DNA of 3,375 nucleotides from Escherichia coli (GTDB lineage: Bacteria; Pseudomonadota; Gammaproteobacteria; Enterobacterales; Enterobacteriaceae), in assembly GCF_024298765.1 (NCBI RefSeq), contig NZ_CP101216.1. One strand, written 5' to 3'. The position numbers and the translations under genes were made by a program. Of the stretch, positions 1 to 3,375 are shown in pieces; positions within the stretch are counted from its first letter, which is position 1; the number at the start of each line of letters is the position of its first letter. Under the pieces are notes generated by a model. It did no database searches and was not told the DNA's origin. It worked only from the letters and a program-made list of their open reading frames with translations.

Positions 1-210
1 TGACGCGCCCCGTGATCGATGGCCTTGGCTCCGTCCGGCATATCGAGAGCGGCAAACTACCCGTCCCTTCACTGGGAGGGGTGAGTTGTTGCCGTTCCCT
101 CCAACCTTTCACCATCCGGCATATCGCACGATCCCATGTGCACCGCAACTCCTGATAACTCCAGTGCAAAAAAAAAAAAAACGGATCTGCATCACAACGA
201 GAGTGATCCC
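1..210 (+). other. ColE1/pMB1-type replication origin, distal part (3' region of the RNA II primer and presumed RNA-to-DNA switch); RNA II promoter and RNA I lie outside the window
   Basis: Position matches the pMB1/pBR322 layout (ori, then bom, then rop). Window 211-226 ACCGCTCGCCGCAGCC and 259-272 GGAAGCGGAAGAG closely match the pBR322 segment between ori and bom as I recall it. The A14 run at 168-181 followed by CGG sits where pMB1 has its A5-CGCC switch motif. Positions 1-160 are too diverged to align by eye, so the boundaries are approximate. Confidence 0.45.
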
Positions 211-394
211 ACCGCTCGCCGCAGCCCCAGCGACCGAACGTAGTGAGCGAGTGGGCGAGGAAGCGGAAGAGTCACAGATGCAAGCATTGTGCACTTACGC
301 GCCTGTGCCAGTGTCCGCGTGTGTGCTGTTTATCGGGTGCGCTGTTTTTACATCTGTGCGGCTTTTTACTCCTGACATGGTGCACTTCCCATCC

Positions 395-560
395 ATGTCT
401 GCACCGATGCAAAATGAGATAAGCCAGTATACACATCGCTATCGCTCTGTGAACTGGGTCAGGGCTGCGCCCCGACACCCGCACTGACGCGCCCTGGCGG
501 GCTTGTCTGCTCCCGGCATCCGCTCACAGGCAAGCTGTGAACGTCTCCGGGAGCTGCATG
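395..560 (-). other. oriT / bom (basis of mobility) of the ColE1 family, with predicted nic site between 424 and 423 on the minus strand
   Basis: Reverse complement of 417-435 reads TGTGTATACTGGCTTATCT, matching the conserved ColE1/pBR322 nic region GTGTATACTGGCTTAAC. The flanks are near-identical to pBR322 bom as recalled: revcomp of 458-478 GGGTGTCGGGGCGCAGCC, of 500-526 GCGGATGCCGGGAGCAGACAAGCCCG, and of 543-561 ACATGCAGCTCCCGGAGAC. The nick position CTGG/CTTA is from memory of the ColE1 literature. Confidence 0.8.
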
Positions 561-562
561 TT

Positions 563-754
563 TCAGTTGCTTTCACCGTCATCGCCGAAGCGTGCGAGGC
601 AACTGCGGTAGAGTTCGTCGGCGTGGTCGTGAAGTGATTCGCAGATGTCTGCCTGTTCGTCCGCGTCCAGATCGTTGAGTTTTTCCAGCAGGGTTAGCGT
701 CTGGCTTCTGATAAAGCGAGCCATGTTAAGGGCTGTTTTTTCCTGTTTGGTCAT
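563..754 (-). CDS. rop: Rop/Rom, RNA I-RNA II interaction modulator (plasmid copy-number control), 63 aa
   Basis: Translation MTKQEKTALNMARFIRSQTLTLLEKLNDLDADEQADICESLHDHADELYRSCLARFGDDGESN is near-identical to ColE1/pBR322 Rop as I recall it (E to D at residue 27, last residues differ). ATG start with an AGGAG Shine-Dalgarno on the minus strand (revcomp of 763-767) about 8 nt upstream; TGA stop. Confidence 0.95.
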   Translation of the reverse strand: MTKQEKTALNMARFIRSQTLTLLEKLNDLDADEQADICESLHDHADELYRSCLARFGDDGESN

Positions 755-802
755 GGTCTTAAGGCTCCTTGTATGGGGGATTTGTTAGGGGGAATGATAC
801 CG

Positions 803-1141
803 ATGAAACGCGAGAAGATGCTCACGATACGGGTTACCGATGAGGAGCACGCCCGGTTACTGGAACGCTGCGAGGGTAAACGACTGGCGGAATGGATGCG
901 GCGGGTCTGTCTGGGGGAGCCGGTTGCACGCACAGGAAAACTGCCGACACTATCGCCGCCATTGCTGCGGCATCTGGCTGCCATCGGGAACAACCTGAAC
1001 CAGACAGCCCGGAAGGTGAACAGCGGCCAGTGGTCTTCGATTGACCGGGTTCATGTGGTGGCCGCACTGATGGCCATCGAGGGTGAATTGCGCCAGTTGC
1101 GGCAGGCTGTCAGGGAACAGGGGGTACGGGATGATAGTTAA
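803..1141 (+). CDS. mbeC: MbeC/MobC relaxosome accessory protein (ribbon-helix-helix nicking accessory protein)
   Basis: Sequence MKREKMLTIRVTDEEHARLLERCEGKRLAEWMRRV... matches the ColE1 MbeC family; the same start (ATGAAACGAGAGAGGATGCTCACGATACGGGTTAC) survives as a remnant upstream of rop in pBR322. Start is ambiguous: 803 has the best SD spacing (AGGGGGAA at 786-793); 818 (MLTIRV..., 107 aa) and 794 are in-frame alternatives. The TAA stop at 1139-1141 overlaps the mbeA ATG at 1131. Confidence 0.9.
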   Translation: MKREKMLTIRVTDEEHARLLERCEGKRLAEWMRRVCLGEPVARTGKLPTLSPPLLRHLAAIGNNLNQTARKVNSGQWSSIDRVHVVAALMAIEGELRQLRQAVREQGVRDDS

Positions 1142-2705
1142 ATTTCATGCCAGGGGGAAAGGCGGTGGAAGTGGCCCGGTCGATTACCTGCTGGGGCGGG
1201 AGCGTAACCGCGAAGGCGCAACGGTGCTCCGGGGTAACCCGGAAGAAGTGCGGGAACTCATTGATTCCACGCCATTCTCGAAGAAATACACTTCAGGCGT
1301 TCTGTCGTTCGCGGAGAAGGAGTTACCGCCGGGTGAACGCGAAAGAGTGATGACGAGCTTTGAGCGTGTTCTTATGCCCGGTCTCGAAAAAGACCAGTAC
1401 AGCATTCTCTGGGTGGAACACCAGGATAAGGGGCGGCTCGAACTGAATTTTGTCATCCCGAACATGGAGCTACAGAGCGGTAAGCGCCTCCAGCCGTACT
1501 ACGACCGCGCGGACAGGCCGAGGATAAATGCCTGGCAGACGCTGGTTAATCATCATTACGGGCTGCGTGACCCGAACGCACCGGAGAACAGACGGACGCT
1601 TGTCACGCCAAATAATCTGCCAAAAGCGAAACAGGAGGCCGCAGAAGCGATTACACGGGGTCTTGAGGCGCTTTACCATGCCGGAGCAATAAAAACGCGT
1701 CAGGATGTCACTGGGGCGCTCACAGCGGCAGGTTTTGAGGTGGTGAGGACAACCAGAAGCAGTATCAGTATTGCCGACCCGGAGGGTGGGCGGAATCTCA
1801 GGCTAAAGGGGGCGCTGTATGAGCAATCTTTTACAAATGGGAACAGACTTCGAGAAGAAACTGAAAGAGCGAGCCGCTTCTACCGAGAACATGCTGAACA
1901 GCGAGTTCAGGAAGCTCGAAGAGTCTGTAGACAAGGCACTGAGCTTAAACAGGCAGAAAATCAGAGACGCTATCAGCGGACATACAACATCCGTGAAACA
2001 GCAACTGGATACACTGAGCGCCACCGTGAGCACGCAGTTCAGCACCACAGAGGCCGAACTGTCCCGGCAGCAGAAAAAACTGCTCTGGCAGGTGATCAAA
2101 GGGCGGATACTGTTTCCGGCGCTGACCGCGCTCAGCGTCACGGGCGGCATTTTCCTGGGGTGCTGGGGGCTGATGGAGTGGCAGGAAAGCAAGATTGCGA
2201 AAAATATCCTGACTATCAGAGAGCAGGAAAACACGCTGGCGAAACTCGAGGCAAAAACCTGGGGGGTGACGTTCGTCAATGGCGAGAACGGGAAATTTCT
2301 GGTGTTGCCGGACGGGGTGAAAGGGGAAAACACCTGGACGGTGGGCGACAAGAACGCCGTGAGGCTGGTCAGGGAGTAAACGAGTATGACGGAACTGGAA
2401 GGGCATTTGCTGAACGCCTTAGAGCATTTGCAACAGGACTATATGCGGCGGCTGAACGAGTGGGAGAGCGCCTTCGCGGAATTGCAGAAGATGCACGAGG
2501 TTACGCAACGGAACAACGCGATACTGAACGAGCGCGTCGTGATATTGAGTCAGCAGGTGCAGAGATTAGCCGGGCAAGTGGATCGCTTGAGTCGGTTATT
2601 TATCGCGAACAACAGCTAAGGGATGAACAGGAGCGTGCCCGGTACAGACATGAGGTACAGGAACGCGCGGCACGGGTTCGGAGTGGGCCATCAATGGAGA
2701 TGTGA
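1131..2705 (+). CDS. mbeA: MbeA/MobA relaxase, MOB-P5 (HEN) family, 524 aa
   Basis: N-terminus MIVKFHARGKGGGSGPVDYLLG places the catalytic Tyr at residue 19 as in ColE1 MbeA. WVEHQDKGRLELNFVIPN carries the H-E-N signature. The C-terminal half is R/E/G/A-rich low complexity, as in MbeA. I chose the 1131 ATG over the ORF-track start at 1083 because of homology and overlap coupling with the mbeC stop. Confidence 0.95.
   Translation: MIVKFHARGKGGGSGPVDYLLGRERNREGATVLRGNPEEVRELIDSTPFSKKYTSGVLSFAEKELPPGERERVMTSFERVLMPGLEKDQYSILWVEHQDKGRLELNFVIPNMELQSGKRLQPYYDRADRPRINAWQTLVNHHYGLRDPNAPENRRTLVTPNNLPKAKQEAAEAITRGLEALYHAGAIKTRQDVTGALTAAGFEVVRTTRSSISIADPEGGRNLRLKGALYEQSFTNGNRLREETERASRFYREHAEQRVQEARRVCRQGTELKQAENQRRYQRTYNIRETATGYTERHREHAVQHHRGRTVPAAEKTALAGDQRADTVSGADRAQRHGRHFPGVLGADGVAGKQDCEKYPDYQRAGKHAGETRGKNLGGDVRQWREREISGVAGRGERGKHLDGGRQERREAGQGVNEYDGTGRAFAERLRAFATGLYAAAERVGERLRGIAEDARGYATEQRDTERARRDIESAGAEISRASGSLESVIYREQQLRDEQERARYRHEVQERAARVRSGPSMEM
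1819..2379 (+). CDS. mbeB: MbeB/MobB mobilization protein, 186 aa, one predicted transmembrane segment (ILFPALTALSVTGGIFLGCWGLM)
   Basis: Lies entirely inside mbeA in the +1 frame, the hallmark ColE1 arrangement. Strong SD (AAGGGGG at 1806-1812) 6 nt before the ATG. Sequence has the MbeB-family character of a coiled N-terminal region followed by a TM helix. Confidence 0.85.
   Translation: MSNLLQMGTDFEKKLKERAASTENMLNSEFRKLEESVDKALSLNRQKIRDAISGHTTSVKQQLDTLSATVSTQFSTTEAELSRQQKKLLWQVIKGRILFPALTALSVTGGIFLGCWGLMEWQESKIAKNILTIREQENTLAKLEAKTWGVTFVNGENGKFLVLPDGVKGENTWTVGDKNAVRLVRE
2386..2619 (+). CDS. mbeD: MbeD/MobD-like protein, 77 aa, predicted coiled coil
   Basis: Same +1 frame as mbeB, starting 7 nt after the mbeB stop with an AGGGAG SD at 2370-2375; nested inside mbeA as in ColE1. 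Assignment rests on position and size; I cannot verify the sequence residue by residue from memory. Confidence 0.75.
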   Translation: MTELEGHLLNALEHLQQDYMRRLNEWESAFAELQKMHEVTQRNNAILNERVVILSQQVQRLAGQVDRLSRLFIANNS

Positions 2706-2805
2706 CCGGGGAAGTGACGAAATCTTGCCATTTTGACCAGTTCGACGGCTGGGGCGAGCGAAACAAATCGTGTGCCGTATTTGTGCATAGCTATGCAACA
2801 TCCTG

Positions 2806-2826
2806 AAAACGCATTTCACGCGTTTT
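2806..2826. terminator. Short hairpin (7-bp stem AAAACGC/GCGTTTT, 7-nt loop) about 100 nt downstream of the mbeA stop; weak candidate terminator in either direction
   Basis: Seen directly in sequence. The U-tract is mostly inside the stem, so termination efficiency is uncertain. Confidence 0.3.
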
Positions 2827-2833
2827 TGGGGAT

Positions 2834-3375
2834 TCAGCCAGGGGAAAACATGGTTTTTTTACTTTTTGAGCGTAAAGACGTGAAAAATCTCGTTATTGCA
2901 CTTGCGATCTTTCGTCGGCGGGCGTAGAACGAAAACAGCTCGCCAGGAAGGCGAGCTGTTTCGGGTTCATTGAGGTCTCTGACCTCCTCAATGTTCCTGT
3001 GGAAACTGTTGAGATCCACAACAGAAACCAGTTCATTCAGTTTGCATGAGCCTTCTGTATTCTTCAAGAATTTTTCAACAGCACAGTCTCCCAGGAACCC
3101 CGAAAAAAACCTGTTTTTGCAGATACTTGCGTATTTGCGAGAATCGTTTGCGGTTGGGGGAGCTGTGACGACGGCGACCGCACGCGTGAGAGTTCCGCTA
3201 CCGGCGCAGAGAGTTTCATCGACAGCGGACACCTGATGAGTTGCCACAAAAACCGTATGTAGCGCGGCTAGATTGGTTGAGTTAGACCTTGGCGGCAGTT
3301 CCCGGTATGTGGTGGCGTGACGGGTGAGATGGTGCGGCGAAGACGCATACGTCACGCAGGCGCGGGTTCTTCCAC
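2834..3375 (-). CDS. Hypothetical protein, 5'-truncated by the window edge (frame stays open past 3375); no recognisable domain
   Basis: A stop-free minus-strand frame of at least 180 codons, ending at a TGA (revcomp of 2834-2836) and convergent on the mob operon. Against it: no ATG anywhere in the frame (the listed start at 3353-3355 is GTG with no SD), and the strong hairpin at 2933-2961 lies inside it. Composition of the central part (KYASICKNRFFSGFLGDCAVEKFLKNTEGSCKLNELVSVVDLNSFHRNIEEVRDL) looks protein-like. Confidence 0.3.
   Translation of the reverse strand, partial: GRTRACVTYASSPHHLTRHATTYRELPPRSNSTNLAALHTVFVATHQVSAVDETLCAGSGTLTRAVAVVTAPPTANDSRKYASICKNRFFSGFLGDCAVEKFLKNTEGSCKLNELVSVVDLNSFHRNIEEVRDLNEPETARLPGELFSFYARRRKIASAITRFFTSLRSKSKKTMFSPG
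2850..2927 (+). CDS. Candidate small peptide, 25 aa (MVFLLFERKDVKNLVIALAIFRRRA), hydrophobic with a basic C-terminus; function unknown
   Basis: ATG at 2850 preceded by AGGGGA (2840-2845); TAG stop at 2925-2927, followed 5 nt later by a perfect GC-rich hairpin. No homology recognised. It overlaps the 3' end of the convergent minus-strand ORF, so at most one of the two readings is likely to be real. Confidence 0.2.
   Translation: MVFLLFERKDVKNLVIALAIFRRRA
2933..2961. terminator. Perfect 12-bp stem-loop (AAACAGCTCGCC, loop AGGAA, GGCGAGCTGTTT); candidate rho-independent, possibly bidirectional, terminator
   Basis: Seen directly in sequence. On the minus strand the stem is followed by TTTTCGTTCT; on the plus strand by TCGGGTTCATT. 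Confidence 0.45.

Follow-up and report, generated by a model that had tools for sequence, protein, structure and literature searches.

Our analyses of the window, by which we mean the whole 3,375-nt stretch of DNA, revealed that it is one complete, unit-length circular natural plasmid of the pSL476_3 type, 3.37 kb long and mobilizable, and that this plasmid is a mosaic of two modules. The first (~211/351 to 2705) consists of a ColE1-family bom/oriT, rop and mbeC-mbeA(-mbeB-mbeD). The second, which extends from ~2713 through the circle junction to ~300, is, as judged from its sequence, a separate protein-free replicon of a sequence family distinct from that of ColE1/pMB1.

Identity and natural origin

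Searches of PLSDB returned 2061 matching records; a single match spanned at least 80% of the window in 137 of them. Full-length matches at 99.5–99.9% identity and 100% coverage came from more than 100 natural plasmids of 3.37 kb in E. coli, Salmonella and Klebsiella, and the sources of matching plasmids included chicken, turkey, cattle, pig, dog, human and river-water isolates. Among these relatives, pSL476_3 of Salmonella Heidelberg SL476 (NC_011082.1) is the same plasmid, with the same gene order on the same circle and identity in that same range over 100% of the window. It and the near-identical plasmids are 3371–3376 bp long and have 3 to 16 point differences from the window, those of pSL476_3 lying mostly within 1670–2090; NZ_CP123259.1 has only three differences. 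The length of an A-tract, which is 14 nt in the window versus 12–13 nt in pSL476_3-type records, explains one or two of the few differences that separate the window from its nearest records. In two circular records of a near-identical plasmid the end of the window joins its start without a break. An earlier sequence-only reading had proposed a wild plasmid and pointed to plasmid databases and contig circularity as the places to look, and both bear that proposal out. Larger relatives of the plasmid are either an assembly dimer or carriers of an IS91 insertion. Of 5426 complete E. coli genomes, 143 have the replicon, and plasmids account for 181 of the 182 matching places. In the supplements of a 2021 ColE1 census (PMC8683028), a sister plasmid of the same strain is included and NC_011082 and NZ_CP012934 are not.

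The plasmid is cryptic and cargo-free because the replicon, rop, bom and mob between them occupy every stretch of it. The remark that plasmids of this kind commonly carry colicin, resistance or defence genes is therefore inapplicable here. The colicin, immunity, lysis and exclusion genes of ColE1 are missing, and no recognisable Xer/cer core site was found in the window.

For comparison with vectors, NZ_CP011006.1 served as a proxy for a pBR322-type vector, and a pMB1 reference sequence was validated by its 100% identity to four records. Contamination of the assembly with a pBR322/pMB1-derived cloning vector might be suspected, as the rop/bom block is recognisably akin to pBR322 and such contamination is known in public records, plasmid pAG001 of 'Psychromicrobium lacuslunae' being a pBR322 derivative with TEM and tet(C). 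However, blastn alignment to the vector was confined to 351–905 (84.2% identity, 70 mismatches, six gap openings) and 211–308 (77.6%), and the vector RNAII/ori had no match anywhere in the window. The pBR322-like block is thus 211–905 and not 1–760, the interval named in the sequence-only reading, and across the latter interval identity to the vector is 78–84% where the two can be aligned at all, nowhere approaching 100%. In addition, no marker genes were found in the window, bla and tet of the vector being absent, the mob operon that was deleted from pBR322 is intact, and the full length corresponds to the wild-isolate plasmids described above. Contamination, already refuted by the vector alignment, has a negligible probability, and we regard a natural plasmid as virtually certain.

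The bom, rop and mobilization module

The features of the first module are as follows.

321–350, plus strand: terminator-like hairpin and T-run, inside a 52-bp insertion (283–334) relative to ColE1 and pBR322
351–500, minus strand: bom/oriT, with the conserved nick-region core GTGTATACTGGCTTAT at 434 to 419; 83.6% identity to ColE1 and 84.2% to the vector
563–754, minus strand: rop, 63 aa, ATG start; Pfam Rop 127 bits, PDB 1ROP E=6e-37
818–1141, plus strand: mbeC, MobC/NikA-like relaxosome accessory protein, 107 aa; Pfam MobC, NikA-like; 88% identity to ColE1 MbeC; annotated by PGAP in a near-identical record
1131–2705, plus strand: mbeA, relaxase of MOBP5/HEN type, 524 aa; NCBIfam relax_MbeA_E1 724.9 bits (cutoff 500)
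1819–2379, plus strand: mbeB, 186 aa, nested in another frame of mbeA; Pfam MbeB_N 77.6 bits; 45% identity to ColE1 MbeB
2386–2619, plus strand: mbeD, 77 aa, nested in mbeA; NCBIfam plas_excl_MbeD 123 bits (cutoff 60); 71% identity to ColE1 MbeD

The order and orientation of ori, a block resembling the ColE1 primosome-assembly site (pas), bom, rop, mbeC and mbeA(B,D) are those of ColE1 (NC_001371.1), to which the window is 83.6% identical at the nucleotide level over 351–1973. Within bom/oriT, TAAGCCAGTATACAC is invariant across the window, ColE1 and the vector, and relative to both of these the region has an 8-bp deletion as well as the 52-bp insertion. Rop is identical to ColE1/pMB1 Rop at 60 of 63 residues, and its gene starts with ATG, versus GTG in both ColE1 and the pBR322-type vector. 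The sequence-only reading was therefore accurate in describing a bom and rop that differ from pBR322 at many positions, an ATG start where the vector has GTG, and an intact mob operon, as mbeC, mbeA, mbeB and mbeD are all intact. Its assignment to the ColE1 family holds for the bom-rop-mbeCABD module but not for the replicon proper. MbeA is 61% identical to ColE1 MbeA over residues 1–522 and has Y19, H97, E104 and N106 (the H-E-N motif). This HEN-type relaxase, aided by MbeC, would nick oriT, and the transfer apparatus would be supplied by a co-resident conjugative plasmid.

The replicon module

The features of the second module, in their order along the circle, are as follows.

2713–2885: upstream part of the module, with an ARG-box-like palindrome TGCATAGCTATGCA at 2785–2798
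2902–2930, plus strand: putative RNAII (pre-primer) promoter; TTGCGA, 17-nt spacer, TAGAAC; weak consensus match
2932–3033, minus strand: putative RNAI-like antisense RNA, ~102 nt, with three stem-loops (2933–2961, 2962–2999, 3000–3030), then a U-run
2937–3375, plus strand: putative RNAII pre-primer, first part, running on across the circle junction
3039–3067, minus strand: putative RNAI promoter; TTGAAG (3067 to 3062), 17-nt spacer, CAAACT (3044 to 3039); weak consensus match
1–181, plus strand: putative RNAII pre-primer, second part, with a G-rich stretch (74–81) and its end at the A-tract; conserved among variants
168–181, plus strand: A14 tract, proposed RNA-to-DNA switch point (ori)
211–272: block homologous to the stretch that follows ori in ColE1/pMB1, containing GAAGCGGAAGAG; putative PriA primosome-assembly site

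The ori had been said to resemble that of pBR322, which our searches contradict: the primer/origin region (2713–3375 and 1–210) has no similarity to ColE1/pMB1, and only the 60-bp block is common to them. Nothing detectable was found when positions 1–210 and 2629–3375 were compared with ColE1 and with the RNAII/ori of the vector, whether by blastn with 7-nt words or by profile nhmmer run without filters. The covariance model of Rfam RNAI, which finds ColE1 at 73.8 bits, had no match in the window. The sole ColE1-like part of the module is 211–272 (profile nhmmer, E=5e-13 to ColE1 and 1.3e-15 to the pBR322-type vector), which we take, from the ColE1 literature, to be the PriA primosome-assembly site. 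A canonical ColE1/pMB1-type replicon whose primer region has merely diverged from pBR322 would account for this block, for the homologous bom and rop, and for promoter hexamers and spacing colinear with those of ColE1. However, all three search methods were negative over ~870 bp, whereas identity to ColE1 is 84% in the neighbouring bom-rop-mob. Such an abrupt step in similarity between the modules is better explained by their exchange than by uniform divergence. In two relatives (L007 and L009), moreover, the replicon lies beside unrelated MOBQ genes, and simple divergence is thus highly improbable.

Homology to the rop-less relatives L008 and L009 starts at 2713, just past the mbeA stop codon. 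The module occurs without rop and with MOBQ mob genes in L007 and L009, and on 1.2–1.5-kb mini-plasmids in L005, L006 and L008, and one 1166-bp relative is almost entirely replicon module, with no annotated CDS. In pLAO79 and pLAO16 (OP242288, OP242246), similar 1.2–1.5-kb E. coli mini-plasmids and 3.1-kb MOBQ plasmids (such as p965-2 and pXD35008), the module is 73–88% identical to that of the window, and the shared span starts at the putative RNAII promoter and runs as far as the pas-like block. The three stems, the G-runs and the A-tract all recur in these plasmids, which nevertheless lack rop and ColE1-type mob genes and differ in their loop sequences.

Conservation among replicon variants was high at several of the proposed elements. 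CTTGC and GTAGAACGAAAA at the putative RNAII promoter were invariant in all 12 variants, and the block CTTCAAG...GCATGA at the putative RNAI promoter was conserved in all of them, although a promoter scan of the window called neither promoter. The G-run GGTTGGGGG at 3152–3160 was likewise conserved in all variants, and GC followed by a length-polymorphic A(10–14) was at the same position in every variant examined. Folding of 2932–3033 gave –44.2 kcal/mol, with z=–4.5 for the minus and –5.6 for the plus strand, and the 618-nt equivalent of the pre-primer in a near-identical record gave –242 kcal/mol (z=–5.2). In the 12 variants, 16 of 22 loop columns of the predicted stem-loops were variable, compared with 12 of the 63 columns outside the loops (p=9.5e-6), loop 3 having 10 different sequences. 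Covariation was thin, with one compensatory pair, a few wobble changes and mostly invariant stem positions, and stem-loop II was fixed by the search pattern itself.

Mode of replication

The anatomy of the module suggests that it probably works by ColE1-style RNA-primed replication. This is because it combines stem-loops with hypervariable loops, the lack of a conserved ORF, the A-tract, the 60-bp block and rop, and because the pre-primer region is strongly structured and its G-runs are conserved. An RNAII-like pre-primer of ~620 nt would start near 2937, be transcribed rightwards across the junction, hybridise to the template, be processed at the A-tract (168–181) and prime DNA polymerase I, with a presumed dependence on RNase H, after which the putative primosome-assembly site at 211–272 would load the replisome. 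An RNAI-like antisense RNA of ~100 nt (3033 to 2932) may kiss the nascent pre-primer via three loops and so set copy number and incompatibility, with Rop potentially stabilising the complex. Control would be like that of ColE1, whose RNAII promoter (TTGAGA-17-TAATCT) is colinear with the putative one of the window. The RNAI promoter of ColE1 has the same –35 hexamer as the putative one here, and in both cases the RNAII promoter is about as far away. At its ori ColE1 has GGAAAAAC, where the A14 tract is proposed for the window. Two differences tell against this reading: the A-tract is only ~30 bp from the pas-like block, versus ~110 bp between ori and that block in ColE1, and the RNAI loops of ColE1 are uniformly 6–7 nt whereas those predicted here are 5, 10 and 7 nt.

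Two other modes of replication were weighed against RNA priming. An initiator protein might be encoded by the 173-aa open frame that crosses the region (2834–3355, minus strand), or by another small ORF; the frame is called a 'hypothetical protein' by PGAP in some records, and tblastn aligns it in L008 and L009 without a change of frame. In L005 and L007, however, its pieces fall in three frames. There are 1-nt and 2-nt indels within it, and these, by breaking the reading frame, mark the region as non-coding. Relatives have no stop-free stretch longer than 96–111 aa, the ORF has no Pfam or NCBIfam match, no ORF of the window or its relatives matched a Rep family in either database, and nucleotide conservation peaks over the stem-loops at all codon positions. 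We thus consider a Rep-dependent replicon very unlikely. Somewhat less remote, but still improbable, is a protein-free replicon that uses a mechanism other than RNAII priming, such as a different host-primed origin at which the stem-loops are a single-strand initiation or termination signal. Compatible with it are the absence of homology to the ColE1 primer region, the weak promoter matches, an unusually long A-tract (10–14 nt) at the putative ori, and the label 'replication mechanism unknown' given to two mini-plasmids with the same replicon in Table S4 of a 2023 survey (PMC10272864). Variability focused on the loops, though, is a signature of antisense kissing-loop specificity, and the ColE1-homologous block lies immediately downstream. 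In addition, the replicon is linked with rop in its commonest member, and to our knowledge the only role of rop is to act on RNAI-RNAII complexes.

Standard plasmid-typing schemes miss this replicon: MOB-suite assigned no replicon type, and AP039422, a plasmid with an identical replicon, has '-' in the replicon column of a published table (PMC12024320). Taken as a whole, the evidence is very likely best explained by a natural, cargo-free mobilizable plasmid built as a two-module mosaic, with a replicon that would be RNA-primed. The plasmid itself is ordinary and has been sequenced many times already; the exception is its replication region, which is unlike that of classical ColE1/pBR322.

Identity of the plasmid and the vector question

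Comparison of all 3375 bases with 72,556 plasmid records by megablast revealed 2061 records that match the window, in 137 of which a single match covers at least 80% of it. The best matches are circular plasmids of 3371–3383 bp with 99.5–99.9% identity across 100% of the window. Their hosts are E. coli, Salmonella enterica and Klebsiella isolates, obtained from food and river water as well as from humans, chicken, turkey and cattle. In two circular records, pSL476_3 of Salmonella Heidelberg SL476 (NC_011082.1) and pYZMc17-1_3k (NZ_CP123259.1), the final 40 bases of the window lead straight into its first 40, so that the window is exactly one circle unit without terminal overlap. pYZMc17-1_3k differs from the window at three positions and pSL476_3 at sixteen; 14 of the latter differences fall within 1670–2090 (420 bp, mbeA/mbeB), clustering that suggests a patch exchanged by recombination and not mutations scattered along the plasmid.

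As vector reference we used the pMB1/pBR322 ori-bom-rop block (1172 nt), which was validated by 100% full-length matches in four records. One of these, deposited as 'Psychromicrobium lacuslunae plasmid pAG001' (NZ_CP011006.1), is listed as an actinobacterial 'plasmid' of 3716 bp and carries TEM and tet(C); it is plainly a pBR322 derivative, and its presence under that host name looks like contamination. Against this record, window positions 351–905 align at 84.2% (70 mismatches, 6 gap openings) and 211–308 at 77.6%, and the RNAII (pre-primer) and origin of the vector gave no alignment to the window. No selectable marker ORF (bla, tet etc.) was found in the window, and the mob region is undeleted. 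The sequence-only reading had argued for a natural plasmid rather than a vector, a view that near-100% vector identity across 1–760 would have overturned. The identity found was 78–84% over 211–905 only, as opposed to 99.5–99.9% at full length to plasmids of wild isolates, and two of the checks it had proposed, on plasmid databases and circularity, agree, with more than 100 near-identical natural plasmids in the database and ends that abut in circular records. The window is a real, very common and cargo-free small plasmid of enteric bacteria and no vector artefact, which settles the quality-control question of the genome scan. As an object the plasmid is already known, having been deposited more than 100 times since pSL476_3 with annotated Rop and Mbe proteins. 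In open-access text, we found no published characterisation of its replicon and no paper on pSL476_3, only incidental listings.

The mobilization and rop genes

The half of the plasmid that contains bom, rop and the mob genes is an ordinary ColE1-family member, with the following features:

351–500: bom, 84% identical to ColE1 and pBR322
563–754, minus strand: rop; Pfam PF01815, 127 bits over positions 1–57 of 57; PDB 1ROP, E=6e-37
818–1141, plus strand: mbeC, 88% identical to ColE1 MbeC
1131–2705, plus strand: mbeA, 524 aa; NCBIfam relax_MbeA_E1 (NF047848), 725 bits (cutoff 500)
1819–2379, plus strand: mbeB, nested in another frame of mbeA, as in ColE1
2386–2619, plus strand: mbeD, nested in another frame of mbeA, as in ColE1

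All four mob genes are present, so the operon is intact as had been read from the sequence. Also borne out were the resemblance of bom and rop to pBR322 despite differences at many positions (84.2% identity over 351–905) and the ATG start of rop, which is GTG in ColE1 and the vector. The translated Rop (63 aa) matches the Rop family, retains Phe14 and differs from the ColE1/vector protein at three residues, E28D, N62S and L63N. MbeA aligns end to end with the 517-aa ColE1 MbeA at 61% identity and keeps the catalytic Y19 as well as H97, E104 and N106 of the H-x6-E-x-N (HEN) signature, making it a MOBP5/HEN relaxase. In near-identical RefSeq records, PGAP either leaves mbeA out or calls it an incomplete pseudogene (1444–1761 in one such record, L003). 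Since the 524-codon frame is open in the window and also in pSL476_3 and pYZMc17-1_3k, the nested mbeB and mbeD have probably misled the annotation.

The nick-region core TAAGCCAGTATACAC (419–434), which adjoins rop, is invariant across the window, ColE1 and the vector within the 84%-identical block. In ColE1, MbeA with MbeC nicks inside the bom core, and transfer requires a helper conjugative plasmid; if the window plasmid behaves likewise, its MbeA and MbeC would be predicted to nick in the 419–434 core. MOB-suite types the plasmid as mobilizable. Between bom and a ColE1-like block at 211–272, the window carries 52 bp that ColE1 and pBR322 lack (region 283–350); a terminator-like hairpin with a T-run in this region (321–350, plus strand) is positioned to stop read-through of a primer transcript.

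The remark that such plasmids commonly carry colicins, resistance or defence cargo found no counterpart in the window. No other window ORF has a family match, and because colicin, resistance, toxin-antitoxin and defence genes are absent, the plasmid is cryptic. A match of MbeB to the DISARM protein DrmD (18.9 bits, cutoff 950) was taken as coiled-coil noise. Larger relatives were also rejected as cargo carriers. One of them has an IS91 insertion. The other (NZ_CP021100.1, 6162 bp) has two replicon copies with duplicated and partly truncated rop and mbe genes; it looks like a partial dimer of the 3.37-kb plasmid, whether real or produced by mis-assembly.

The replicon module and its layout

Blastn with 7-nt words identified similarity to ColE1 (NC_001371.1) at four places only, 211–268, 351–1973 (83.6%), 2215–2316 and 2387–2628, and none in 2629–3375 and 1–210. 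In ColE1, rop and the primer are transcribed towards each other, so it is this last interval that must hold the pre-primer promoter, RNAI (the antisense copy-control RNA) and origin if the layout follows that of ColE1. The Rfam RNAI model (RF00106), which detects ColE1 RNAI at 73.8 bits, had no match in the whole window at E≤1 or in the 211-nt candidate region at E≤10, and Rfam scans of the window gave only chance miRNA and leader matches. An nhmmer profile built from six versions of the replicon region and run with all filters off (--max) matched ColE1 (E=5e-13) and the vector (E=1.3e-15) only at the ~60-bp block 211–272. That block is homologous to a ColE1/pMB1 segment in the corresponding position downstream of ori, which we take to be the PriA primosome-assembly site. 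The earlier description of an ori, bom and rop block resembling pBR322 is correct for bom, rop and 211–272 and fails for RNAII, RNAI and ori; similarly, membership of the ColE1 family applies to the mob-rop half and not, by sequence homology, to the replicon. Judged by homology the replicon falls outside the ColE1-like replicons, whereas its apparent architecture would place it among them.

Typing tools and surveys are in keeping with this. MOB-suite (via PLSDB) gives the plasmid relaxase type MOBP and no replicon type, and assigns ColE1 and the vector to rep_cluster_2350. Long-read sequencing often under-represents small plasmids, which bears on the one published copy-number estimate cited here. 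The 3373-bp plasmid AP039422, which is 100% identical to the window across a 491-nt primer-region query (2885–3375), appears in a 2025 paper with '-' as its replicon and a copy number estimated at 2.5 per chromosome (PMC12024320, Table 2). A 2021 census of 1,035 ColE1-like plasmids, compiled with ori and RNAI HMMs plus PlasmidFinder, includes NZ_CP012933, which is a different small plasmid from the same strain of Salmonella, and omits NZ_CP012934 and NC_011082 (PMC8683028 supplements).

Alignment of the module, which runs from 2713 through the circle junction to ~300, across its relatives enabled the following features to be read:

2902–2930, plus strand: putative RNAII promoter, invariant CTTGC, 17-nt spacer, GTAGAACGAAAA; colinear with ColE1 TTGAGA-17-TAATCT
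2933–2961, 2962–2999 and 3000–3030: three hairpins of the predicted fold
3067 to 3039, minus strand: putative RNAI promoter, conserved block with TTGAAG-17-CAAACT; −35 hexamer the same as in the ColE1 RNAI promoter
3152–3160: G-run GGTTGGGGG, conserved across relatives
74–81: second G-rich stretch
168–181: A-tract, A14 here; every variant has 10–14 nt of it, following GC
211–272: ColE1-homologous block, downstream of the A-tract
2834–3355, minus strand: 173-aa ORF antisense to the putative primer, 'hypothetical protein' by PGAP in some records

Both promoters are weak and read by eye, since none reached the tool threshold in a promoter scan of the window. At 14 nt, the A homopolymer of the putative origin is the longest seen among relatives (10 to 14 nt); tract length explains most of the 3371–3376-bp size scatter among records, and its polymorphism may in part be sequencing error.

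Three stem-loops are predicted on either strand of the 107-nt hairpin region (−44.2 and −46.5 kcal/mol; z-scores −4.5 and −5.6), a stability that none of 200 shuffled sequences reached. Their predicted loop sizes are irregular. The 618-nt putative pre-primer, in its pSL476_3 equivalent, has a predicted fold with z=−5.2. Among 12 distinct variants, drawn from plasmid records and from 23 contigs of gut metagenomes, the stems are nearly invariant, with one compensatory A-U to C-G pair and two U-A to U-G changes, which renders classical covariation nearly uninformative. For that reason, the distribution of variable columns between loops and stems was used instead. With pattern-fixed columns excluded, 16 of 22 loop columns vary compared with 12 of 63 other columns (Fisher's p 9.5e-6), and loop 3 has ten different sequences in the 12 variants. 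Such loop-centred variation is expected of kissing-loop specificity determinants in an antisense RNA that controls copy number. One metagenome contig (ERZ837590...13116) has a chimeric RNAI region, its promoter and stem-loop I being identical to the type of a mini-plasmid (L008) and its stem-loop III to another variant type (L014), a sign that replicon variants have recombined within the antisense region.

An alternative is that the 173-aa ORF encodes a Rep initiator, an idea prompted in part by pKL1, a 1.5-kb plasmid that encodes Rep. The ORF is open in the window, but in relatives it is broken by 1- and 2-nt indels, lies in pieces in three frames in a mini-plasmid (L005) and a rop-less MOBQ plasmid (L007), and has a longest stop-free stretch of 96–111 aa. 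No Rep family match was found in any ORF of the window or its relatives, and a 1166-bp relative is almost wholly replicon module without an annotated CDS. The ORF was rejected as Rep on its indels, frame switching and lack of a family match, and together with the 1166-bp relative these observations make any plasmid-encoded protein initiator unlikely. By analogy with ColE1, replication would probably start instead from an RNAII-like primer processed at the A-tract (168–181), an RNAI-like antisense RNA of ~100 nt would inhibit that primer, and Rop would act as a helper in their control. We infer this mechanism, in its every step, from the conserved layout of promoter-like elements, hairpins and A-tract, the loop-centred variation and the lack of a protein initiator. 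Whether the module represents a never-characterised lineage of RNA-primed, RNAI/RNAII-controlled replicons we consider evenly balanced; such a lineage would have diverged too far to be caught by Rfam RNAI, ColE1 HMMs, PlasmidFinder or MOB-suite.

Spread and probable exchange of the module

An 881-bp replicon query matched only 182 plasmid records, versus 2061 for the whole window. The replicon-bearing plasmids form three groups: the 3.37-kb plasmids, MobA/MobL (MOBQ) plasmids of 3.07–3.17 kb without rop (L007 and L009; 74–88% identity), and plasmids of 1.17–1.55 kb (L005, L006 and L008; 73–80%). Homology to the mini-plasmids spans window 2885 across the junction to ~300, and in L008 and L009 it starts at 2713–2719, directly after the mbeA stop codon. 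Because ColE1 similarity steps from 84% to nothing and the module also stands beside unrelated mob genes, this arrangement points to module exchange.

The 2713–2885 stretch also contains a perfect palindrome, TGCATAGCTATGCA (2785–2798), resembling the ArgR box of cer in ColE1, as well as 17 nt matching that cer site (2724–2741). A functional cer was nonetheless rejected: the whole plasmid lacks a XerC/XerD core site, the best arm match is 14/22, which is chance level, no XerD-arm match lies within 2 mismatches, and local alignment to ColE1 cer scored no better than shuffled sequence.

The module was found in 143 of 5426 complete E. coli genomes, where 181 of the 182 matching places are on plasmids and PGAP gives no feature or only a hypothetical protein beneath it. 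A scan of species-representative genomes with the stem-loop II pattern gave one match, a 519-bp contig with 1x coverage in a Spongiactinospora (actinomycete) assembly (NZ_POUA01000830.1). Over the 202-nt stretch around the stem-loops that was compared, this contig matches the window exactly; it is probably contamination.

Two 1.2–1.5-kb mini-plasmids with the replicon have been listed as 'replication mechanism unknown' (PMC10272864, Table S4). If the RNA-primed reading is true, replication of such E. coli mini-plasmids would be explained, and rop would have been recruited to a heterologous antisense pair via module exchange at oriT and the mbeA end. Tools for replicon typing, and also a census dedicated to ColE1-like plasmids, have overlooked a replicon that occurs in ~2.6% of complete E. 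coli genomes; if typing databases included the RNAI/RNAII-like module, a small gap in plasmid surveillance would be closed. The replicon is also a candidate high-compatibility replicon for multi-plasmid systems.
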